DNA from: Candidatus Woesearchaeota archaeon
GTDB taxonomy: Archaea; Nanobdellota; Nanobdellia; Woesearchaeales; SKGA01
NCBI GenBank assembly: GCA_050187915.1
Contig: JBFXLI010000001.1
Location: forward strand, 35,920-99,919
Reading direction: 5' to 3'
Length of the DNA: 64,000 bases
The notes under the pieces are model-generated. The model did not search any database and was not told where the DNA came from. It worked only from the letters and a program-made list of their open reading frames with translations. Below are positions 3,171 through 56,939 of the stretch, one piece after another. A program made the position numbers and the translations under genes. The stretch's first letter is position 1. The number at the start of each line of letters is the position of its first letter.

Positions 3171-4016
3171 TTATCTATATTCAGTGAATGCTTCATAATC
3201 TCCATCTGAAACTTTTCCAGATACTTCAACTGCATATACTATTCCACCATGCTCAGAAGCTAAAAAAGGATCTTTGAAAACAAAAACTGCATTTTCTCTA
3301 GAAGCATTTTCAGGAAATTCTTGTTGTCTTACTTTTTCAATATATGATTCAATTTCTGCAATTTCACCTGTGTAAGGATCAGGTCTTAATTTAGAAGGCT
3401 TAATAACATCACCTTTATTAAATAAAAATGAAGACGCATGATAATATTTAGATTTTAGTATAGGAAGTTTTTTATACTTTGTTACACGCTCATTTAAAAT
3501 CATTAATTGTCTATCAAATTTAATAACATCTTTATATTCTCCTTTCAATAAAATTATTTCTTTTTCAAGACATTTAGAAAGTAAAACTAAAATTCTGTTT
3601 GAATCAAGTATTGAATTAATACTATTATCTCTATCTTCAATAAATTTTAATAATTTTTTCTCTTGTTCAAGTAAATCCTGTAATTCGTCTAATTTATTAA
3701 GTGCATCATAAAGAGTTATTAATTCATGTTTAAATAACAATTTATGTCTTAATTCTTCTTTTTCAATGTTTTTTTCTAATTGTTTATATTCTTTTAATTT
3801 ATTTAATACGTGTAAATTTCGTTCTAAAAAATCTTTGGATTTTTGTAGAGTAAAATATAAATTCTGTCCAGACATATTATTTAACATTTTAATTAAATAA
3901 TTATATTTCTCTTGAGTAAATTGTTGTAACTTAGATAAAAATTGAAGAATATTATGAAGTTCAGTATCTTGTTCTTTTATTTCTTCTGGAATAGATTTTT
4001 TGGGATTAAAAAACAT
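3171..4016 (-). CDS. Hypothetical coiled-coil protein (281 aa).
   Basis: ORF rich in heptad-like K/E/L stretches (LEKNIEKEELRHKLLFKHEL...). The C-terminal ~100 aa are non-coiled. No family recognised. Confidence 0.35.
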   Translation of the reverse strand: MFFNPKKSIPEEIKEQDTELHNILQFLSKLQQFTQEKYNYLIKMLNNMSGQNLYFTLQKSKDFLERNLHVLNKLKEYKQLEKNIEKEELRHKLLFKHELITLYDALNKLDELQDLLEQEKKLLKFIEDRDNSINSILDSNRILVLLSKCLEKEIILLKGEYKDVIKFDRQLMILNERVTKYKKLPILKSKYYHASSFLFNKGDVIKPSKLRPDPYTGEIAEIESYIEKVRQQEFPENASRENAVFVFKDPFLASEHGGIVYAVEVSGKVSDGDYEAFTEYR

Positions 4017-4060: not shown

Positions 4061-4663
4061 TTAATGTTTATTTCTTCCTCTTAATTCAACTGTTTCAAGT
4101 CTTTTTAAAACTTTTTCAGAATCTTCAAACTTATATCCTTTCAAGAATTCTTTATAAAATTCAGTTACATTTTTATAATGTGTACTTTCTATTGCTTGTT
4201 TTAAAAGATGTATGTCTACTGCCATATCTTCTATTTTTTTAGAAAACAATGAAAGTCCAAAATCTATTAAATATAATTTTTCAGATTTATCAACAAGTAT
4301 GTTTGAAGTTGTTAAATCTCCGTGTATTATTCCATTTTCATGCATTTTTGCAAGCCAATTTCCTACTTTTTTAAGATAAATTTTTTTAGAAGTATCTTCA
4401 ATTAAAACATCTCTTAATCTTTTTCCATCTATAAAATCCATACAAATGGTAAATTTATCATCAGATTCATATATTTTAGGAACATTTATTTTTAATTCTT
4501 TTAATTTATTCATAACTTTAATTTCTCTTTTTGTTCTATTAAGTCTTATTTTATTGTCTAATTCAACATGTCGATAACTTTTTTGTATTCTTTTTTTTAA
4601 TATTTTATCGTCTTTTAAAACAAGTATGGCTTCTGCTCCTTGTGAAATTATTTTTTCTTGCAT
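4061..4663 (-). CDS. bud32: Bud32/Kae1-associated Ser/Thr kinase (KEOPS subunit), RIO-like.
   Basis: GAEAILVLKDD (glycine-rich loop), HGDLTTSNILV (catalytic loop), IDFGLS (DFG), and a C-terminal VELRGRNKH. The track ORF runs to 4684 (MLLFLCF...); I placed the start at the ATG at 4663-4661 (MQEKII...). Confidence 0.75.
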   Translation of the reverse strand: MQEKIISQGAEAILVLKDDKILKKRIQKSYRHVELDNKIRLNRTKREIKVMNKLKELKINVPKIYESDDKFTICMDFIDGKRLRDVLIEDTSKKIYLKKVGNWLAKMHENGIIHGDLTTSNILVDKSEKLYLIDFGLSLFSKKIEDMAVDIHLLKQAIESTHYKNVTEFYKEFLKGYKFEDSEKVLKRLETVELRGRNKH

Positions 4664-26572: not shown

Positions 26573-26742
26573 ATCAATCACATTTTTATTTTTTAGCCAA
26601 AATTCTGTGTAAAATTTTAGCAACCAAGAAATCGCATATAAAGAAAATCCTATACGCGTTAACTCGGATTTATATAATTAAGAAATTTCATTAATTTATA
26701 AAGGTTTGGTTATAATGTTCACTTATAAATTCAAATAAAACG

Positions 26743-26817
26743 GGCAGGGCCTGGGATTTGAACCCAAACTAGAAGATCCACAGTCTTCTGTGCTAACCAG
26801 ATTACACTAACCCCACC
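26743..26817 (-). tRNA. tRNA-His (anticodon GUG), with the G-1 residue genomically encoded and no encoded CCA.
   Basis: The minus strand reads G(-1)-GTGGGGT-TA-GTGT-AATCTGGTTA-GCAC-A-GAAGA-CTGTGGA-TCTTC-TAGTT-TTGGG-TTCAAAT-CCCAG-GCCCTGC-C. The cloverleaf folds: acceptor 7 bp (three G.U pairs), D arm 4 bp, anticodon stem GAAGA/TCTTC with loop CTGTGGA (U33, GTG at 34-36, G37), T arm TTGGG/CCCAG with a TTCAAAT loop, and discriminator C73 pairing G-1. A TATA-like TTTATAT sits ~25 nt upstream. Confidence 0.8.
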
Positions 26818-26857: not shown

Positions 26858-26989
26858 GTTACGAGTGAAATAAGTAACCTAGGAATGTTAATGAGTATGG
26901 TTTTGAAGAACGTAGTTCGAAAAACTTAGGAACGTCAGTGAGTATTGTTACGAGTGAAATAAGTAACCTAGGAATATTAATGAGTAGAG
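26858..26989. repeat. Degenerate tandem/direct repeat (~89-bp period, two 43-bp copies plus a partial internal copy) between the Lrp gene and tRNA-His.
   Basis: GTTACGAGTGAAATAAGTAACCTAGGAAT[G/A]TTAATGAGTA occurs at 26858-26900 and again at 26947-26989. The 46-bp stretch between them holds a third degenerate half-copy (TAGGAACGTCAGTGAGTATTG). Each unit contains a hairpin GTTAC-N11-GTAAC. Confidence 0.5.
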
Positions 26990-27148
26990 TTATGATGAAA
27001 TTAAATTAAAGAAAATAATGGAAATGTATTTTCAAGCTAAAATACGGGTAGTAATTATGTTTTTTCATTATTTATGTTTGTTTGTTAACTTATCTTTCTT
27101 ATTTAAACACAATTGGTTGCTTGAAAATACACCCAAAATTATAACAAA

Positions 27149-33702: not shown

Positions 33703-33724
33703 TTTTATTATTTTAATTATATTC

Positions 33725-34050
33725 TGAAAGAAAAAACTGACGTCTGCTCCACTGATTCGCTGACTCCAGAAAAAAGTGGCGCGCAAGGCAGTGGACTTAA
33801 CAAATATCTGAATGATAGTCTGAAATAATTCTACTCTCTGCAACCCTTTAAACACCGATTGAATGTACGCATGGCTGCTACCGTCAGGTCCTGACCAGGT
33901 TTGTAAAACAAACGATCAAAAAGGACAGAGCATCAAACAAATTAAATCAGCATGCAAACATTTGCAAGCCGCCTGCCAAGCTTCGATTCGCCCAACGATC
34001 CGTTTGACGCAACAGGTGAGGATCAGCCACCCAATCTAGCCATCTTTAGA
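33725..34050. other. Non-coding GC-rich island (~48-50% GC against a ~27% background); candidate structured RNA (possibly SRP/7S RNA on the minus strand) or foreign DNA.
   Basis: No ORF of 60 aa or more apart from one spurious one overlapping the LeuRS end. It contains GACGTC, GCGCGC, AAGCTT and GCATGC, all rare in this genome. The minus strand carries CCUGGUCAGGACCUGACGGUAGCAGCC, which resembles SRP RNA helix 8 (CCAGGUCAGGUCCGGAAGGAAGCAGCC in E. coli 4.5S), with the U-A pair covarying to A-U. Confidence 0.3.
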
Positions 34051-34080: not shown

Positions 34081-35001
34081 CTAAATTAAAAAAATCAATA
34101 ACCAACTAAAAATAGCTCCTAGAAAGCATCCCATTGAAATAAATGGCATTGCAGGATAAAATTTGCCTTTTTTAGAATAGTAAAATAATAAGAATAAAGC
34201 TAAAGTTGTTATAATTATTATTGGTAAAACGAATAAATAAGAGTTTATAATTGAAAAACCATTTTTAATTAAATTTTCCATAACAACTCCTGTAAATAAC
34301 AATGGAAAAACTACGTCTCCTCCACCAAGTATTGCTGTTTTTGATTTATTTTTTGTAGAATTTTTTAAATTTATTTTTTTATGAGATTGTTTTATTTTAT
34401 TTGCTTCATAATTTATTGTCAATCCTGCAAACATATTTGATTCTGCTGTAAACTTTGCTAAAGTAATCATGTGTTTACTTTTCCAAACTGCATACATATC
34501 ATATATTGAAATTAAAATTAATACTATTGAAATCCAAAATAAATCAAATAAAGGAACTAAAAATATTGCAAGTCCTGAATACATTAAAACTTCAGTTATA
34601 TTGTGAGTATATATATTTGGTTTTAATATTTTTATTGTAGCTATAATTATTGCTAAAATTAAAGCAATTTGTGCAGATAGAATTACACCTAAACTTATTG
34701 ATACTGTCATTATTACTGCTAATATGTACCAAAATTTCCAAATTTTTTTAGCCTTGTATTTAGCTAAAAATAACAATAATAATGTTCCAATTAATACTCC
34801 TATTATTATATATATTAAGCTTTGCCCACCATTAAATTCAGGACGTTCACCTATTACTGTTTCTGGATGTACAACAACTAATTCTCCTGTATCAGATATT
34901 GTTAAATTATCTATATCTGCTGCAATAAAAGCTAAACCTATTAATTGAGATAAGAAAAATATAAAAACTAAAATTAATGTTACTTTAAATTCATGTTTCA
35001 T
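34081..35001 (-). CDS. Presenilin/signal-peptide-peptidase-like intramembrane aspartyl protease (A22 family homolog).
   Basis: Polytopic membrane protein with the three hallmark motifs in order: ISIYDMYAVW (YD), AILGGGDVVFP (GxGD), and FYPAMPFIS (the PAL-like motif). Confidence 0.6.
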   Translation of the reverse strand: MKHEFKVTLILVFIFFLSQLIGLAFIAADIDNLTISDTGELVVVHPETVIGERPEFNGGQSLIYIIIGVLIGTLLLLFLAKYKAKKIWKFWYILAVIMTVSISLGVILSAQIALILAIIIATIKILKPNIYTHNITEVLMYSGLAIFLVPLFDLFWISIVLILISIYDMYAVWKSKHMITLAKFTAESNMFAGLTINYEANKIKQSHKKINLKNSTKNKSKTAILGGGDVVFPLLFTGVVMENLIKNGFSIINSYLFVLPIIIITTLALFLLFYYSKKGKFYPAMPFISMGCFLGAIFSWLLIFLI

Positions 35002-35915
35002 CTATTTTTAGAAGTTTTAGTTGGTTTAATAATGTTTTTCTTTTTGGGAGAAATTTTTGATTTTTTGACTGATTTCTTTTTGACTGATTTCTTTTTGACT
35101 GATTTCTTTGATTTATCAATTGAAATATTATTCTTAACATTATTAGTATATGCCGAAAAAGAACTATTTTCACTAAAGAATTTTGAAGTTCTAGATATTT
35201 TTATCATTCTTGTGAGTCTAAAACTTGTTTGAAAAATTTTTATAATTCTAGCAGCTCTAACTATTTTAAATGCTCTAAAAAAACCTATTGAAGGTATTGA
35301 AGCTAAAACATCGAAAAAGTTTTTTGTAATGAATTTTTTAAAAGATTCAGCTTTTTCATAAAGTATTATTACATCAACTATAAATAAAGCAGTTATAATT
35401 AAATCAACCATATCTAATATTGCAATATAATTTGATAAATCATAAAATGTTTGGAGTAAAAGTTGTAAAATTGCTACTGCTACTGCTACTAAAATAATTA
35501 TTCCCCATAATATTTCAAAAGAAGATTTATCTAAATGTTCGGGCGTAATTTCTGAATGAATTGAATCTTCTATTCCTGATGCTTTAGTAATTGTGTTTAA
35601 TATTTCTTTAAATCCAACTGTAACTACAGAAGCTGCTGAAACTAATATGAAATTGGATAATATTTTACCAAATGGTGAAAGTGAAAAAAATGAACCTAAC
35701 ATATTTAATAAAATTGAACCTGCAATAACAAATGAAACACTTGCAATCAGAAAATCTTTTTCTTCTGAAAGTAAAAATAAACCTACTAAAACTCCTGAAA
35801 ATACGAGTACAATTGATTTTGCAATTTGTAAATTAACTGAAAATGTTTGGAAAGAACCATCTATTATTGCGAGCATTGAAGCTAAGACAAAAAAATAAAG
35901 TCCTACTTTGTTCAT
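34998..35915 (-). CDS. Membrane protein with a voltage-sensor-like domain (S4-type Arg/Lys repeats) and a K-rich repetitive C-terminal tail.
   Basis: Four N-terminal TM helices. Then an S2/S3-like helix with acidic residues (LDMVDLIITALFIVDVIILY). Then FRAFKIVRAARIIKIFQTSFRLTRMIKISR, with a basic residue every third position. The tail is KSVKKKSVKKKSVKKSKISPKKK. No pore-loop/selectivity filter is evident. Confidence 0.45.
   Translation of the reverse strand: MNKVGLYFFVLASMLAIIDGSFQTFSVNLQIAKSIVLVFSGVLVGLFLLSEEKDFLIASVSFVIAGSILLNMLGSFFSLSPFGKILSNFILVSAASVVTVGFKEILNTITKASGIEDSIHSEITPEHLDKSSFEILWGIIILVAVAVAILQLLLQTFYDLSNYIAILDMVDLIITALFIVDVIILYEKAESFKKFITKNFFDVLASIPSIGFFRAFKIVRAARIIKIFQTSFRLTRMIKISRTSKFFSENSSFSAYTNNVKNNISIDKSKKSVKKKSVKKKSVKKSKISPKKKNIIKPTKTSKNR
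35061..35110. repeat. 15-bp tandem repeat (~3 copies) inside the CDS, encoding the KSVKK repeats.
   Basis: GACTGATTTCTTTTT repeated three times head to tail at 35067-35110. Confidence 0.7.
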
Positions 35916-44164: not shown

Positions 44165-44983
44165 TTGGCTGAATCAATTATAACAAAAAAAAGCGACATT
44201 GTAAGAATTAAAGTTCATATAAATGGATTAGATGAACAACTAGAAAATGGAATTCCTAGTGGACATATAACTTTAATATCTGGTGCTGCAGGTACAATGA
44301 AATCTTCTGTTTGTTTTAATATTTTATATCATGAAGCCTTAATAAATAAAAGAAATGGTTTGTACTTATCTTTAGAACAATCTCATAGTTCTATTATTAA
44401 TCATATGATAAATATGGATTATGATTTAACAAAAATAAATTTAATTGTTATAAATAATTTAGCAGATATAGGACAACATATAAAAAAAATTAATCAAACA
44501 AATATGGGTTCTTTAATTCTTGTTGATGTTGGATGTATCAGAAAAGAAATAAAAGATTTATCTAACAATGAAAATAAAAGTTGGTTAAATGTTGTTAAAA
44601 ATATTTTAAAGAAAATAAAACTTGAAAGTAAATTAGATTTATTTGTTTTAGATTCATTAAGTGCTCTTTATGTTTTATCAAAATTTGAAAATCCAAGAAT
44701 TGAATTATTTTTCTTATTTGAATTTTTAAGAGATTTAAATTTAACTTCATATTTAATAACTGAAGCTTCTGGTGAAGGAAAAAACAAATATGGTGAGTAT
44801 GATGAAGACTTTTTATCTGATGGAATTATATTTATAAATTTAAATAGTTATAGAAGAAAACAAATACGAGAAATAAGTATTGTTAAAATGAGAACCACAA
44901 AATGTAATCACGATATTTTTTCATTGGAATATAGAGAAGGTAAATTTCATGCAGAATATGGTGGACAAAATCCTTTACTTTAA
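44165..44983 (+). CDS. KaiC/RadA-superfamily ATPase-like protein with a deviant Walker A.
   Basis: GIPSGHITLISGAAGTMKSS (KaiC-like P-loop context, but GxxGxMKS not GK[ST]). Walker B-like LFVLDSLS. Confidence 0.55.
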   Translation: MAESIITKKSDIVRIKVHINGLDEQLENGIPSGHITLISGAAGTMKSSVCFNILYHEALINKRNGLYLSLEQSHSSIINHMINMDYDLTKINLIVINNLADIGQHIKKINQTNMGSLILVDVGCIRKEIKDLSNNENKSWLNVVKNILKKIKLESKLDLFVLDSLSALYVLSKFENPRIELFFLFEFLRDLNLTSYLITEASGEGKNKYGEYDEDFLSDGIIFINLNSYRRKQIREISIVKMRTTKCNHDIFSLEYREGKFHAEYGGQNPLL

Positions 44984-45868
44984 ATTATTAGCTAAATAAG
45001 CTGCACCTAATAATCCTGCATCATCTGATAAAGAAAATTTTTCTAATTTTAAATCTTTAAATAAACTTTCAGGACAATACTTTTTAATTTCTTTTTTTAA
45101 CTTTAAATAAACATCTTTAGATACGTTACTGACTCCTCCACCTAAAACAATTACTTCAGGATTTAAAGTTGTTATCATAGTTCCTATTATCCAAGCTAAA
45201 GATGTAACTACTATATTTGAAATTTTTTTAGCTCTAGAATCTTTTAAAGATAATATTTTTGAAGGTAATATATAATCTTTTTTATCATGTAAATACATTT
45301 TTTCAATATATTTTCCACCACATAAATGTTCTAAATGATGATAATGTTTATTTTGAGAATCTAGATTTATAGGAACTTTTATTTTTCCAATTTCACCAAA
45401 TGCATTATTTGCGCCTTTTATTAATTGTTTATTTATAACTAATCCACTTCCTATACCTGTACCCCAAATTATACCGAGAACAGAACTTCTTTTATTTGAT
45501 TTACCATAAATACTTTCAGCTAATGTAAAACAATTTGCATCATTTTCTACAATAACTTTAACTTTAGTTTTTTGATGAATTATTTTTTGTAAATTAACAT
45601 TTTTAAGAGAAGATAAATTATTTCCAGTTATTATTAATTTTCCAGACTTATCTATTGTTCCTGATGTAGATATTCCTATTGCTTTAATTGGAACTTTATA
45701 TATAGATGATAAAAATTTTATAACATATAATATGTTGCTTATTAAACTTGATTTTGTTTCATTTTGATGTAGAAAAACTTTTTTTGAGTGGATAATATTT
45801 CCTTTCTCATCTACAATCGCGCCTTTTATTTTTGTCCCACCAATATCTACTGCTATTACAACCATCAC
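44975..45868 (-). CDS. ROK-family sugar kinase (glucokinase/N-acetylglucosamine kinase-like).
   Basis: IAVDIGGTKIKGAIVDEKGNII, and LGGGVS near the C-terminus. Confidence 0.8.
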   Translation of the reverse strand: MMVVIAVDIGGTKIKGAIVDEKGNIIHSKKVFLHQNETKSSLISNILYVIKFLSSIYKVPIKAIGISTSGTIDKSGKLIITGNNLSSLKNVNLQKIIHQKTKVKVIVENDANCFTLAESIYGKSNKRSSVLGIIWGTGIGSGLVINKQLIKGANNAFGEIGKIKVPINLDSQNKHYHHLEHLCGGKYIEKMYLHDKKDYILPSKILSLKDSRAKKISNIVVTSLAWIIGTMITTLNPEVIVLGGGVSNVSKDVYLKLKKEIKKYCPESLFKDLKLEKFSLSDDAGLLGAAYLANNLK

Positions 45869-45938: not shown

Positions 45939-47189
45939 ATGAAATTCATACATTTAGCTGATTGTCATTTAGATGGTTACAGAGAAGAAAAATTAAATAA
46001 ATTGAGTTTGGACAATTTTGAATATGTTATGAATTTTAGTGTTTCTGAAAGTGTTGATTTTATTTTATTAGCAGGTGATTTATTTAACACAGCACTTCCA
46101 AAAATTGAAACTTTAAAAGAAGTTGTTAATATTTTAAAAAATGTAAAAGATAAAGGAATTATGATTTATTTTATTCCGGGAAGTCATGATTATTCTCCTA
46201 ATGGTAAAACTATGCTTGATGTTTTAGAAAATGCTGGATTAATAAAAAATGTTTTTGTTGGTAAAATTGGTTCTGATGAAAGTTTATATTTAGATTGGAC
46301 TATTGATGAAAAAACTAAAGCACACATTACAGGTATTCATGGATTAAAAGGTATGCTTGATAAAAATTATTATTCTAAATTAGATTATTCAAATTTAATT
46401 TCAAATGAATTTAAAATATTTATATTTCATACTGCAATAAAAGAAATGCTACCTAAAGATTTAGAAATGATTGAATCTTGTTCTGTTGATATTTTACCTC
46501 CAGGATTTGATTATTATGCAGGTGGACACGTTCATGTAAGAAAAAGGGGAGCGGGGAGCGGGGAGCAGATGCTGGATTCTGACACGCTGGGAGCTGAAGA
46601 CAGTGGTTGGAAAAATAAAGTTATTTTTCCTGGGCCTACATTTCCAAATAATTTTGCTGAACTTGAAAAGTTAAAATATGGAAGTTTTGTTTTTTTTAAT
46701 GATGGTAAATTAACTTTTGAAAAAATTCCTTCAAAAGAAGTTGAAGTGTTGAATATTGATTGTGAACTAAGAAATCCAAATGAGGTTCAAGAATTTATTG
46801 AAACTAAAATTGAAGAAATTGATGTTAAAGATAAAATTGTTCTTATGAGATTTTCTGGTGTTTTAAAATCTGGAAAAGTTTCTGATATTGATTTTAAATT
46901 AATGAATAAAATTTGCTTGGATAAAGGAGCATATATTGTTTTACAAAATACTAATAAATTGAAAAGTAAAGAATTTGTTGAAGTTGAAGTTAGTGAAGAA
47001 TCTTCAGATGAAATTGAAGACAAAACCATATTTGAAAATTTAAATCAAATAAATTTACCTTCTGATATTGATGAGAAAGAATTGATTTTAAAATTGATGA
47101 ATATTTTAGATACAGAGCAATTTGATGGTGAAAGTAAAACTAATTTTACTGAAAGATTAATTGAAGAAACAAAAAAATTAATTAAATAA
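45939..47189 (+). CDS. mre11: Mre11/SbcD-type DNA repair metallophosphoesterase, with a GC-rich in-frame insert.
   Basis: MKFIHLADCHLDG (motif I), GDLFN, and GGHVH (motif IV). A 69-bp GC-rich segment at 46540-46608 encodes KRGAGSGEQMLDSDTLGAEDSGW. Start placed at ATG 45939. Confidence 0.7.
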   Translation: MKFIHLADCHLDGYREEKLNKLSLDNFEYVMNFSVSESVDFILLAGDLFNTALPKIETLKEVVNILKNVKDKGIMIYFIPGSHDYSPNGKTMLDVLENAGLIKNVFVGKIGSDESLYLDWTIDEKTKAHITGIHGLKGMLDKNYYSKLDYSNLISNEFKIFIFHTAIKEMLPKDLEMIESCSVDILPPGFDYYAGGHVHVRKRGAGSGEQMLDSDTLGAEDSGWKNKVIFPGPTFPNNFAELEKLKYGSFVFFNDGKLTFEKIPSKEVEVLNIDCELRNPNEVQEFIETKIEEIDVKDKIVLMRFSGVLKSGKVSDIDFKLMNKICLDKGAYIVLQNTNKLKSKEFVEVEVSEESSDEIEDKTIFENLNQINLPSDIDEKELILKLMNILDTEQFDGESKTNFTERLIEETKKLIK

Positions 47190-48056
47190 TTATTTCTTTA
47201 ATTTATCTATTATTTTTAATGAATTAATATTTAATTTAGAAAATGCAAACCACTTTTTTCCTAAATCTTTAAGTGACGCCCCTATGTGATAAACTTCATT
47301 GTCAATTATTAAAAATCTGTCGTGGGAATCTTTGAATTCATTTATTTGAATATTGTTATATTGTTGATTATATTTTTCTAAATCTAATTTTAATTGTTTT
47401 GTTATTTCTTTTGTATAAATTGTTGTTTTTAATTTTGTTTTTGAAAAAAGGGTAAGAATTGATTCATCAATGTAATTATCAATTAAAATCATTTCTTTTT
47501 TTGCAGATTTAATTAACTTATTTATGAAAAAATATGCTTCAAAAATTTGTCCGTTAAAAAATATTCCTTTTTCGGGTTTAATATCTTTTTCTTGAATTAA
47601 ATTAAATACTTGTTCGAATTTTTCATCAGTTTTTATTTGATATTCTATTTGTTTTGTTTCTAGATTTGATAATTTTGAAAGAAAGTCTGCATTTGATTGT
47701 AAAAATTTTCTCATTTGAACAAAGGCACGCATAATTTGAATATTTATTTTTATAGCAATTTCACTTCTTAAAACACTTGAAAGCATTGCAACTCCTTGTT
47801 CTGTGAAAACAAAGGGAAGATATCCTCCAAACTCTTGTTTAGAAGGGGTCGCAAATTGCGACCCCATAAGTTCTACTTCGTTTTTATTTAATTCAAACAT
47901 AAAATCTTCAGGAAATCTTTCTATATTTCTTTTAACTTGTTCTTTTAGCCTTTTGGTAGAGATATTGTATAATTTCGCTAAATCTTTGTCAAGCATTACT
48001 TGTTTTCCTCTTAAATTGTAAATTTTATTTTTTATAGTTAATTCGATTTCATTCAT
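47190..48056 (-). CDS. ORF6N-domain protein (KilA-N/antirepressor-like DNA-binding N-terminus).
   Basis: YNLRGKQVMLDKDLAKLYNISTKRLKEQVKRNIERFPEDFMF matches the ORF6N signature. The C-terminal ~150 aa are typical of ORF6N-associated C-domains. Confidence 0.55.
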   Translation of the reverse strand: MNEIELTIKNKIYNLRGKQVMLDKDLAKLYNISTKRLKEQVKRNIERFPEDFMFELNKNEVELMGSQFATPSKQEFGGYLPFVFTEQGVAMLSSVLRSEIAIKINIQIMRAFVQMRKFLQSNADFLSKLSNLETKQIEYQIKTDEKFEQVFNLIQEKDIKPEKGIFFNGQIFEAYFFINKLIKSAKKEMILIDNYIDESILTLFSKTKLKTTIYTKEITKQLKLDLEKYNQQYNNIQINEFKDSHDRFLIIDNEVYHIGASLKDLGKKWFAFSKLNINSLKIIDKLKK

Positions 48057-48144
48057 AAAATAATTTATTTAAAGTTTTATTTATATTTGACTTGGAAAAA
48101 ACCGAAAATTTCACGAAAAAAAGTTAAAAAAAAAGAAAAAATAA

Positions 48145-48531
48145 TTAATTAAATAGTTTTTTGCCATCAACTTTTGTATCAGATATATATTTTATAATTA
48201 TAAACCATAACGCACAAGTAATCAAGAAAGAATATATGAATGAAAATATATTTACATTATTTGCTAAAGGGATTTCTCCAAATGGAATATAAAATAAAAA
48301 GAGAATCATTAATCCAAAAGATAAATGTAACCATAATTTGGTTTTTTCTTTAAGTTTAAAAAAATAATATATGGCAATACTCATTAATATAGGAACAATA
48401 AATAATACCGATGTAGTTATTATAAAAAAATATTCAAAAGCAATAGCTAAAATTAAAGATATTGTTAATGAAAATAAAACATTAAAAAGTAAATAAATAG
48501 ACATCACCCAAACAAATGGCGTTCGTTTCAT
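48145..48531 (-). CDS. Hypothetical 4-TM membrane protein.
   Basis: 128 aa with four hydrophobic helices. Overlaps the AsnRS stop by 4 nt. Confidence 0.35.
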   Translation of the reverse strand: MKRTPFVWVMSIYLLFNVLFSLTISLILAIAFEYFFIITTSVLFIVPILMSIAIYYFFKLKEKTKLWLHLSFGLMILFLFYIPFGEIPLANNVNIFSFIYSFLITCALWFIIIKYISDTKVDGKKLFN

Positions 48532-54889: not shown

Positions 54890-55690
54890 TTACTTTTCAT
54901 TTAAGTAATGCAACACATCTTCAACTTTTTTGTTGTTGAAAATTATTTCTCTTAAAGCATGTGTTAATGAAAATGGTTGCTTTGATTGCCAAATGTTTCT
55001 TCCTATTGCTAAACCTGTTGCTCCTGTTTGAAGTATTTCATAAGTTTTACGTAAAAAGTGTTCAGGTGTTTCTTTTGTTCCACCTGCAGTTAAAACTCTT
55101 GCACGTCCAGCATTTTTCACAACCCATTTATATCCTTCTACATCATGATTGTATTTTAATTTAAGAAAATCTGCACCAAGTTCTAATCCTATTCTTGCAG
55201 CATGGGCGATAGTATTTGTATCTTCATCGTTAGGTATAGCTTTTCCTCTTGGATACATCCAAGCAATTACTGGAAGTCCTGCGTCATGTGCTTGTTCTAC
55301 AACTTTTCCAAAGTTTTCAAATTGTTCTGGTTCAAACTCGCTTCCTGGAAATAAAGTATAGCCTACTGCTGAAGCACCTAATTTAATAGCTCTATCTACT
55401 GAACAAAGTTGTTTTGATATTGGTTCGATATGAGGTAAAGCAGTTTTTCCATTTAACTTAACTATTAAAGGAACATCTTTATAGTGTTCGTGATAATATT
55501 TTTCTGCTAAACCATGTTGTAAAATAACACCATTATAATTTCCTTCTAAAGCTATGTCAAGTATATATGTAGGATCTATATTTTTTAAATTGAAGTCTTT
55601 TGGTCCATGTTCTAAGCCTTGATCACAAGCTAAAAATAATGAACGATTTTTTTTCATTAGTTTTGAAACGTTAATTTTCATTTGTATCAC
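54890..55690 (-). CDS. fbaB: Class I fructose-bisphosphate aldolase / DhnA-FbaB family (archaeal type).
   Basis: LFLACDQGLEHGP and IVKLNGKT (Schiff-base Lys context). 266 aa. Confidence 0.7.
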   Translation of the reverse strand: MIQMKINVSKLMKKNRSLFLACDQGLEHGPKDFNLKNIDPTYILDIALEGNYNGVILQHGLAEKYYHEHYKDVPLIVKLNGKTALPHIEPISKQLCSVDRAIKLGASAVGYTLFPGSEFEPEQFENFGKVVEQAHDAGLPVIAWMYPRGKAIPNDEDTNTIAHAARIGLELGADFLKLKYNHDVEGYKWVVKNAGRARVLTAGGTKETPEHFLRKTYEILQTGATGLAIGRNIWQSKQPFSLTHALREIIFNNKKVEDVLHYLNEK

Positions 55691-56939
55691 ACTCTTGATT
55701 TTTTAAGCAATCTAAAATTATATCTGACATTTCAAATTTAGATTTTATATTTTGTAGTTTATTTGTATGTTTTTCTAAATTGAAAACATTATTTAGCCAA
55801 TCAATAAAATGATTTCCGGAATTATGAAAATTAAAAACTTCATCTGGCATAAATTTAAGTTTTAAAGCTAAATCTTGTATGGAATATAATTTCTCTCCAT
55901 TAGATAATATAAATTCTTTTCCTTCTGGAGCTTTATAAGAATTAAAATCATGTGTATCTATTAATTTAATTTCTCCTTTGAATTCATTCATTTTATTTTC
56001 TATATCTTGTTTGAAAATTAAATCAGATTTTGCTCCAAGTTTAACAATAACATTTTCAGATTGTATCATTCCTAATTTTAATGAGTATGAAATATCTTTT
56101 TCAAGTATTAATCCTGCAACAAAACCACTTGCAAATGCATCTCCTGCTCCTGTACATTCAACAACTTTGATGTTTTGACTTGGTGTTGCAGAATAAATTT
56201 TTCCTTCATGTGTTGCAACAACTCCATTTTTTCCATCTGTTATAACTATATATTCTGGTCCTAATTTGGATAATTTTCTTATTAAATTAATGGTATTATC
56301 TTCTTTGTCGTTAATTAATAATTGTGCTTCATCTTTATTTAAAATTAAAACATCAACATTTGTTAATATTTCTCCTAATTCAGATAATCCTCTTTTTGCT
56401 TGATAACTTGATGGATTGAATGCGATTTTTGCTCCTGTTTTTTTTACAACTTTAATTATTGATTTTAATGTTTCGAAACTTTTTCCTATCATTGAAGAAG
56501 CGTAAAGCCATTTTGTTTGTAGATTTGATAATAAAACATCTGCTTCTCTTAATTCATTATTTACGCCTTTATATGTTAAAATAGTTCTGTCTTTTTGAAA
56601 TGAATCTAAAATTATAGAATATCCTGTTTGTCCTTCACGAGCTCCAATAAATTGAATATTTTCTTTATTTAATAAATTTAAAATTTTGGTTCCATTTTCA
56701 TCTGCACCTAATTTTCCTAAATAGGCTGTTTTAAATCCAAGTCTTGAAAAAGAAACTGCTGTATTGGTTCCACCGCCGCCTATCATAAAATCGAGTTCAT
56801 TTATTATAACTTTATCTCCAACTTTATATGCTAAAAATTCTTGTTCTGAGTTAGAATCTTGTATTTTTATTAATTCAGAAGTTTCAGTATAGGCAAAAGC
56901 ATCAACTGTCGCACTACCTATTGTTATTACGTCAAACAA
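55671..56939 (-). CDS. PfkB-family carbohydrate kinase with an extra ~110-aa C-terminal domain.
   Basis: MFDVITIGSATVD, GGGGTNTAV, and GAGDAFASGFVAGL (PfkB motif 2). The C-terminal extension (from about aa 310) has no recognised family. Confidence 0.75.
   Translation of the reverse strand: MFDVITIGSATVDAFAYTETSELIKIQDSNSEQEFLAYKVGDKVIINELDFMIGGGGTNTAVSFSRLGFKTAYLGKLGADENGTKILNLLNKENIQFIGAREGQTGYSIILDSFQKDRTILTYKGVNNELREADVLLSNLQTKWLYASSMIGKSFETLKSIIKVVKKTGAKIAFNPSSYQAKRGLSELGEILTNVDVLILNKDEAQLLINDKEDNTINLIRKLSKLGPEYIVITDGKNGVVATHEGKIYSATPSQNIKVVECTGAGDAFASGFVAGLILEKDISYSLKLGMIQSENVIVKLGAKSDLIFKQDIENKMNEFKGEIKLIDTHDFNSYKAPEGKEFILSNGEKLYSIQDLALKLKFMPDEVFNFHNSGNHFIDWLNNVFNLEKHTNKLQNIKSKFEMSDIILDCLKNQECDTNEN

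Follow-up and report, generated by a model that had tools for sequence, protein, structure and literature searches.

Most low-complexity regions described in proteins are homopeptides encoded by triplet or hexamer repeats, and they follow genome composition, as poly-Asn does in AT-rich Plasmodium. Rickettsia palindromic elements (RPEs) are selfish in-frame DNA of 100–150 bp, palindromic and multicopy, with the same element recognisable in many genes. In neuO, the O-acetyltransferase gene of the Escherichia coli K1 prophage CUS-3, a 7-nt repeat, (AAGACTC)n, lies in the 5′ coding region and full-length protein is produced only if n is divisible by three; tracts contain 3–53 units, 20 being the commonest, and 66% of alleles are OFF (PMC13001214). 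Here we analysed 64 kb of DNA from a Candidatus Woesearchaeota archaeon (contig JBFXLI010000001.1; hereafter, the window), in which an mre11/sbcD-family nuclease gene (45939..47189, + strand; 416 aa, start at MKFIHLADCHLDG) carries a GC-rich, in-frame block close behind a catalytic motif. We consider it probable that this block encodes a clade-specific, hypervariable surface loop of Mre11 that originated by slippage of a 7-nt repeat.

The mre11 block resembles neuO in being a translated 7-nt tandem repeat within an open reading frame (ORF), where the frame is kept only in threes and each unit is read in three phases; slipped-strand mispairing alters copy number in neuO and would do the same in mre11 (PMC13001214). 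However, neuO tracts are long, perfect, demonstrably phase-variable and mostly OFF, and they lie N-terminally in an accessory phage-borne gene, whereas the mre11 tract comprises three perfect units and a decayed remainder, is OFF in none of 9 alleles and occupies an internal hairpin by the active site of an archaeal core repair nuclease. The block also shares characteristics with low-complexity regions born by slippage from cryptic simple repeats (background in PMC3523016), as a lineage-specific, fast-evolving, hydrophilic and probably disordered insertion at a tolerant surface site, which changes by indels rather than substitutions and whose composition is set by the repeat unit and not by genomic codon bias. 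It differs from most described cases in having a non-triplet repeat whose composition opposes a strong AT bias. Like RPEs, it adds a translated segment of atypical composition to the protein surface of a conserved gene, but it occupies a single locus, forms no palindrome and has no other copy in the window.

In the window gene, the phosphoesterase motif V codons GGT GGA CAC GTT CAT (GGHVH, G195–H199; 46521..46535, +) are followed by GTA AGA AAA AGG GGA GCG GGG AGC GGG GAG CAG ATG CTG GAT TCT GAC ACG CTG GGA GCT GAA GAC AGT GGT TGG, which encodes V200–W224. The variable segment begins two codons downstream of motif V and comprises K202–W224 (KRGAGSGEQMLDSDTLGAEDSGW; 46542..46610, +), as supported by composition, 7-nt periodicity, homology and low confidence in the predicted structure. 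It contains a perfect tandem array, (GGGGAGC)x3 (46546..46566, +), which encodes G-A-G-S-G-E within RGAGSGEQ; using Tandem Repeats Finder (TRF; score 42, 100% match), this was the sole period-7 array scoring ≥36 in the 64-kb window. The fixed 3′ boundary is formed by the returning β-strand and PGP closing hairpin (K225–P233, KNKVIFPGP; 46611..46637, +).

Overall, the window has a GC content of 25.3%, and its highest 60-nt value (0.65) falls in the block; over 100 nt, GC is 0.53 at the block versus 0.15–0.30 in the flanks. GC at codon positions 1, 2 and 3 is 0.62, 0.54 and 0.58 in the block, compared with 0.39, 0.23 and 0.09 in the remaining gene. Outside the insert, the roughly 50 ORFs of the window use CAA 438 times and CAG 10 times, CTG accounts for 9 of 1800 Leu codons, and GC at third positions (GC3) is 0.111. 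GC-ending rare codons make up 14 of 24 codons in the window's insert, while across the window runs this rich are very rare (≥10 GC-ending codons in 24 of ~16,400 runs of 24 codons). Among these ORFs, the block is the strongest GC and GC3 outlier and the sole strong GC3 island, and it gives the strongest period-7 signal of 4,128 ORF windows. No other GC3 or period-7 island was found in the window's ~50 ORFs or in the relatives' loci outside mre11; the second-best period-7 signal (55690–55790) is merely an A-rich tract. The original prediction of an in-frame GC-rich block after GGHVH, containing (GGGGAGC)x3 and codons that the genome otherwise avoids, is borne out by these data, the frame being kept throughout the 416-aa ORF. 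Its description as a 69-bp insert holds for the length of the GC-rich block (~69 nt) but not for the net gain, which is 16 aa (48 nt) relative to insert-less relatives with 15 aa between GGHVH and PGP, as the block also takes the place of the original hairpin tip.

We examined the same site in the best 120 homologues of the window protein. The spacing from GGH(V/I)H to PGP was 15 aa in 100 of them, and 12 had 14–17 aa or a variant flanking motif; spacings above 17 aa (18–44 aa) occurred only in the 8 closest (60–72% identity). Insert-bearing relatives, for which DNA was fetched, are denoted here by locus numbers; with the window, they provided nine loci from independent assemblies. The insert was present at the same site, likewise with GC-rich codons, in all eight closest homologues and was lacking in the other 112 of the 120. 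After removal of the insert, the insert-bearing sequences were monophyletic (100% bootstrap), with the insert-less L009 as sister; the window and L001 were sisters (90.5% bootstrap), and L005 fell outside them. The window segment is homologous to the inserts of L001–L008 and L011, and the inserts share a DNA core, GAACAGAATGCAGAAACTGAA. In the relatives, this core reads GAACAGAAT(G/A)C(A/T)GAAAC(T/A)GAA, encoding EQN(A/T)ETE, and DNA alignment shows it to be homologous to EQMLDSD in the window (GAG CAG ATG CTG GAT TCT GAC; GAGCAGATGCTGGATTCTGAC; 46563..46583, +), which was also located by pairwise alignments and by wrap-around alignment to GAACAGA, the 7-nt consensus described below. Because the insert-bearing sequences form a clade with 100% bootstrap, the insert is ancestral to that clade and not a recent import.

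A genome scan for more clade members yielded one new locus, L011; nearly all sequences from a corresponding metagenome scan were distant homologues. When the surroundings of the insert served as query for a second protein search, only distant partial proteins and no truncated close relatives were recovered. Cluster listings contributed two near-identical sequences and four unrelated 56-aa proteins: the 90% cluster of P0006 (a 430-aa Mre11) also files P0121–P0124 (MSIDSEYAELYH...). As tblastn of these four proteins gave no match in any locus, their presence in an Mre11 cluster is probably a database clustering artefact.

The compositional anomaly is a property of the whole clade. Insert GC is 0.36–0.51 versus 0.23–0.29 for the remaining gene in every lineage. 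Pooled over the nine loci, codon preference is reversed: the ratio of CAG to CAA for Gln is 23:1 within inserts but 1:49 elsewhere in the gene, Leu is encoded by CTG in 10 of 16 cases inside versus 4 of 375 outside, and GC3 is 0.41 and 0.15, respectively (Fisher P = 1e-19).

Autocorrelation of the eight distinct inserts revealed a sole significant period of 7 nt (combined Z = 6.8; window insert alone, Z = 3.1), with a harmonic at 14 (Z = 3.5); the signal persisted after removal of the two perfect arrays (Z = 4.9). Period 3 was negative, which is unusual for coding DNA. With permissive TRF settings, 7-nt arrays were detected in the window, L001 ((GAACGGC)x3.6), L004 (6.1 copies), L005 (6.9 copies) and L008, where GTCAGAA x2 starts at the Val-Arg codons directly after motif V. 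Wrap-around alignment of the same eight inserts converged on the cyclic consensus GAACAGA and outperformed shuffled sequences in 7 of 8 loci (z 2.3–3.9). Read over three phases, GAACAGA gives E-Q-R-T-E-N-R, matching the amino-acid make-up of the inserts, and the conserved core itself reads as a decayed run of 7-nt units.

Arrays at the same position and in the same phase consist of GAACAGC, TAACAGC and AAACAGA in L005, GAACGGC x3 in L001, and GAGCGGG x3 in the window (the GGGGAGC array in the relatives' phase). The window and L001 arrays are each perfect, and the two differ in every one of their 3 units at the same 2 positions. As L005 lies outside the window–L001 pair, the history is a change from CAG to CGG, common to both, followed by two further changes to G in the window lineage. 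Each change appears in all three copies, which is beyond the reach of independent point mutation; the pattern shows concerted evolution of the units.

Comparisons between close relatives show how rapidly the insert changes, although alignment of such hypervariable DNA is uncertain. L002 and L006 share 95% protein identity outside the insert, yet their inserts (29 versus 18 aa) align only in part; L006 appears to have lost the 5′ part together with the core and to have gained a small GGAAC duplication. Similarly, L004 and L008 are 96% identical outside the insert and differ by several indels inside it. Two ancestral CAGs still present in L004 and L008 have changed to CAA or AAT in L011, at ~5% divergence. 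From these losses it follows that G and C in the insert are not strongly protected site by site and would have to be replenished by turnover.

Assignment of the gene product to the Mre11/SbcD family draws on sequence and structure searches. The ORF matched the Pfam family Metallophos (E = 3e-12; 47.8 bits against a cut-off of 21.5), and no other Pfam family exceeded its curated cut-off. The protein is 100% identical to an NCBI protein from a Candidatus Woesearchaeota metagenome-assembled genome named ‘exonuclease SbcCD subunit D’, and Pyrococcus furiosus Mre11 (4hd0, 1ii7) provided the top PDB sequence matches. We used Foldseek to compare the AlphaFold model (mean predicted local distance difference test (pLDDT) score 89.8) with the PDB; the top 16 matches were all archaeal Mre11 (E down to 2e-19), with target-normalised template-modelling scores of 0.64–0.75, the best being 0.73–0.75. 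The model predicts the nuclease plus capping-domain fold of the family, and its phosphoesterase core, capping domain and C-terminal helices match those of P. furiosus (1ii7, 3dsc) and Methanocaldococcus jannaschii (3av0) Mre11. Phosphoesterase motifs I–V (D-x-H, GD, GNH(D/E), H, GHxH) were recognised, and D8, H10, D47, H83, D84, H164, H197 and H199 are invariant across the 120 homologues. Motif III (46179–46190; residues 81–84) reads GSHD where Mre11 and calcineurin-like phosphoesterases, including the solved archaeal enzymes, canonically have GNHD; Ser82 is nearly invariant in all 120 Woesearchaeota/Nanoarchaeota homologues, so that the usual Asn metal ligand is replaced family-wide.

Motif V aligns to the GHIH motif of P. 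furiosus. Its residues G196, H197 and H199 do not vary in the 120-sequence alignment, where G195 and V198 are nearly invariant (≥90%), and all five are invariant in a 20-sequence alignment. On the other side of the insert, P231, G232 and P233 are invariant in the 20 sequences, while in the 120 G232 is invariant and P231 and P233 are nearly so. The insert lies at, and lengthens, the hairpin that follows motif V in P. furiosus Mre11 (HKRYETSYSGSPVVYPGS). This hairpin is short in the solved enzymes (13 aa from the motif V His to PGS in P. furiosus) but 3–29 aa longer in the window clade. In the AlphaFold model, residues 201–230 form a low-confidence excursion (mean pLDDT of successive 10-residue blocks, 68, 56 and 77) between strands 202–205 and 227–230 of an otherwise confident structure. 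As the original prediction had proposed for the enzyme, the insert is almost certainly translated as an extra surface loop, here extending the β-hairpin after motif V; the loop is probably disordered and would be tolerated on the surface. In the different lineages, the sequences show a basic ascending arm and an acidic descending arm. Every variant keeps the frame and lacks stops, the eight different lengths all being multiples of 3, in a set ascertained as intact proteins. Given its position, the loop may affect the nearby active site, or contacts with Rad50 or DNA.

We propose that the loop arose once and has been remodelled ever since as replication slips on a 7-nt tandem repeat whose cyclic consensus is GAACAGA. 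A possible seed is the native Val-Arg codons, GTC-AGA-A, just past motif V, as the GTCAGAA duplication in L008 suggests. As seven is not a multiple of three, an array stays in frame only in sets of three units (21 nt), with each base read at all three codon positions. In a surface loop, units would survive only if each of their three phases were non-hydrophobic and free of stops, and this filter would push G+C to ~0.4, equally at codon positions 1, 2 and 3. We simulated the filter by weighting all heptamers by 25% GC and retaining those that were stop-free in three phases and had at most one hydrophobic, aromatic or Cys codon. Surviving heptamers had a mean GC of 0.40–0.41, by construction equal at all codon positions, which equals the observed pooled GC3 of 0.41. 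The three-phase filter could account for the general GC effect without foreign DNA. Turnover faster than AT-biased decay would, together with the filter, maintain the ‘wrong’ codons CAG, CTG, GCG, GGG, AGC and ACG, such that a heptamer-repeat origin probably explains the odd codons as well. In the window lineage, repeated homogenisation of unit variants from GAACAGC through GAACGGC to GAGCGGG would have yielded the three perfect GGGGAGC copies.

Several points weigh against this account. The window unit is 86% GC, compared with the ~0.4 expected from the filter, and the window lineage has changed towards G three times in succession (A to G, A to G and C to G). As both exceed what the filter predicts, an extra force may act, such as GC-biased conversion within the array, drive, preferential slippage of stabler units or selection for a Gly/Ala linker. 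The CAG:CAA ratio of 23:1 is more extreme than a GC3 of 0.4 predicts, although the 24 Gln codons are in part copies of one unit and hence non-independent. Furthermore, C and G are the best-kept unit positions (83–85%), the opposite of simple AT-biased decay, in a wrap-around alignment with a bias for rare letters as anchors. The sample, too, is small (9 sequences, roughly 6 independent lineages), alignment of the inserts is uncertain as noted above, and all sequences were found as intact proteins, so that the observation that they are always in frame carries an ascertainment bias.

As an alternative, the periodic C-N-G motif (CAG or CTG every ~7 nt) might itself be a selected nucleic-acid signal, with the loop residues as its by-product; the motif could form a binding array for a protein or a small RNA, or a conserved rare-codon cluster at which the ribosome slows once it has made the catalytic core. 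Such a signal would fit the use of CAG in 23 of 24 Gln codons of the insert versus 1 of 50 outside, the retention of the core CAG in 5 deeply diverged lineages, the conservation of C and G at 83–85%, the 14 of 24 GC-ending rare codons in the window insert and the ~6-fold enrichment of CWG (W, A or T; 68 in 708 nt of insert versus 953 in the 64-kb window). However, 30 of the 68 CWG motifs lie in frame 1, a trivial outcome of Thr, Ser or Ala codons preceding Glu or Asp codons. In L011, G to A changes removed two ancestral CAGs at only ~5% divergence, L006 deleted the conserved core altogether, and the units of the window and L001 have CGG in place of CAG. Nor is there a conserved RNA fold (z -3.7 to +1.8). 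We consider a selected signal unlikely. Other nucleic-acid or translational roles were rejected. A structured or small RNA finds no support in the nine folded inserts, which have no common structure (z -3.7 to +1.8), and Rfam identified only the signal recognition particle (SRP) RNA and a tRNA in the window; a C/D-box misfits in spacing, as judged by eye. A G-quadruplex was dismissed as a general explanation, as the three G4 runs occur in the window copy only and are not conserved in relatives. An internal restart at a Shine–Dalgarno (SD) sequence plus ATG was likewise rejected, being confined to the window, L005 and L008. In these three inserts, an SD-like purine run (GGAGG, AGGAG or GGGGAG) is followed within 0–3 nt by an in-frame ATG (L008, 2092–2104; L005, ~3700–3712; window, 46560–46571), which is probably incidental.

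Were single units gained or lost, the repeat could instead serve as a contingency (phase-variation) switch, in which a frameshift past the catalytic motifs turns the nuclease reversibly off. High slippage rates in contingency loci typically need well above 5 units, and only 3 (window) or 3.6 (L001) perfect units were found here, with decayed arrays elsewhere and no long tract. All 9 alleles are in frame, compared with 66% of neuO alleles OFF, a comparison affected by ascertainment, and the region-focused protein search revealed no truncated close relatives. Conversely, a perfect non-triplet repeat does lie inside the ORF (x3 in the window, x3.6 in L001), unit variants homogenised over three copies in two lineages imply repeated unit gain or loss, and neuO of E. 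coli K1 works by such a repeat (PMC13001214). On balance, a switch at this locus is very unlikely. More broadly, the array might be a working device in DPANN archaea, either this frameshift switch or a self-renewing GC-rich array that is spread by biased conversion or drive and kept since a variable acidic loop near the active site helps to escape viral Mre11–Rad50 inhibitors; taken jointly, these two versions seem quite improbable. Either, if true, would be a first locus of the contingency type in a core DNA-repair gene of archaea.

The explanation that the composition most readily brings to mind is foreign or selfish in-frame DNA (an RPE-like element, a mobile GC cluster, an intein remnant, a bulge-helix-bulge (BHB) intron or the variable region of a diversity-generating retroelement (DGR)) or an assembly chimera. 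GC content and codon usage are sharply unlike those of the host gene, and the block lies beside a catalytic motif of a DNA-metabolism gene; such genes, near their catalytic motifs, are typical intein sites. However, all members of a monophyletic clade, from independent assemblies, have a homologous insert at this very codon. A 61-mer of the insert had no second copy in the window with ≤3 mismatches (none being expected by chance), word-7 blastn found no other copy or DGR template of the GC-rich part in the window, and no foreign source was matched by an exact 39-mer search of viral contigs or by blastn against phage and plasmid records. Inteins have at least ~130 aa, splicing blocks A, B, F and G, and a nucleophile at +1; we rejected an intein or mini-intein, as the extra segment measures 3–29 aa (the window block, 23 aa) and Pfam reports only Metallophos. 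An intron excised from RNA could freely break the frame or carry stops, whereas all inserts, ascertained in intact proteins, are stop-free multiples of 3 with no consistent fold (z -3.7 to +1.8), and a BHB intron was rejected. A DGR target was discarded given the missing template in the window and the unit-size indels, rather than adenine-specific substitutions, by which relatives differ; no reverse transcriptase was present among the ~10 window ORFs scanned with Pfam. An RPE- or GC-cluster-like mobile repeat was rejected as the sequence is single-copy in 64 kb and missing from the viral, phage and plasmid collections, and the window insert does not fold like a palindromic element (z -1.6). 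A chimera is very unlikely, as the relatives' independent assemblies have the insert at the same codon. Taken together, foreign or artefactual DNA is an exceedingly improbable source. The original prediction had offered three origins (recent foreign insertion, a remnant of a mobile element or intein scar, and a slippage-generated repeat) and had named a shared insert of similar codon usage in close relatives as evidence against a foreign one; the eight closest homologues show exactly this, and the periodicity, TRF arrays and wrap-around alignment favour slippage. A ‘GGAGCAGA(C/T)G theme’, proposed to connect the block with a GC island at 33725–33745, is no more than chance would give: exact matches between the insert and the rest of the window reach at most 10 nt, a length that shuffled inserts typically attain, and the theme's 8-mer also occurs at 4632. 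We rejected the link, the island being the flank of the SRP RNA gene.

The cause of the anomaly is thus likely to be local and of a known kind, namely a translated hypervariable loop generated by slippage of a non-triplet repeat in a small Woesearchaeota clade. A sharp, ‘foreign-looking’ island of GC-rich codons in an AT-rich genome need not mean horizontal transfer, as local generation is possible. A translated non-triplet tandem repeat must suit all three phases, and this requirement alone may enrich G+C at every codon position, which provides both a caution for compositional-island scans and a simple, testable rule for recognising repeat-born loops. The findings also mark a fast-evolving loop beside the Mre11 catalytic site in one Woesearchaeota clade, where concerted evolution towards G-rich units under strong AT pressure poses a small question of slippage, biased conversion or selection.

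Genes neighbouring mre11 in the window encode a ROK kinase, a KaiC-like ATPase, an ORF6N protein and an Asx-tRNA synthetase. Rad50/SbcC, the partner of Mre11, usually has its gene beside that of Mre11. Pfam scans of 10 window ORFs (7 of which exceed 400 aa) revealed no SMC-like gene of rad50 size, and rad50 adjoins mre11 in none of the loci seen. The order ROK-family kinase, divergently transcribed mre11 and Asx-tRNA synthetase recurs in the window (44165–45868) and in L002, L004, L005, L008 and L009, although in L005 the synthetase is not adjacent to mre11; the KaiC-like ATPase lies upstream of mre11 in the window and L009. An ORF6N-domain gene (47190–48056) and a small membrane ORF (48145–48531) separate mre11 from the synthetase gene in the window (47190–48531, -). 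In L002, L004, L007 and L008 the synthetase directly follows mre11, so that the ORF6N/membrane-ORF block in the window looks like a local insertion.

Elsewhere in the window, an archaeal SRP RNA gene was annotated at 33773–34046 (-; Rfam RF01857, 101 bits). Its 3′ flank of ~50 nt, taken on the minus strand (33719–33772), shows no significant fold (z 0.43) and contains four CTGA motifs between two T-runs. A 42-nt unit repeated x3.3 (63% match) lies at 26858–27001 in the intergenic region adjoining tRNA-His (26742–26816, -), the sole tRNA gene in the window. Finally, a perfect 15-nt tandem repeat, TTTTTGACTGATTTC x3.2 (35062–35109; TRF score 96), overlaps an ORF at 34998–35915 (-), in which it would be an in-frame 5-aa repeat.

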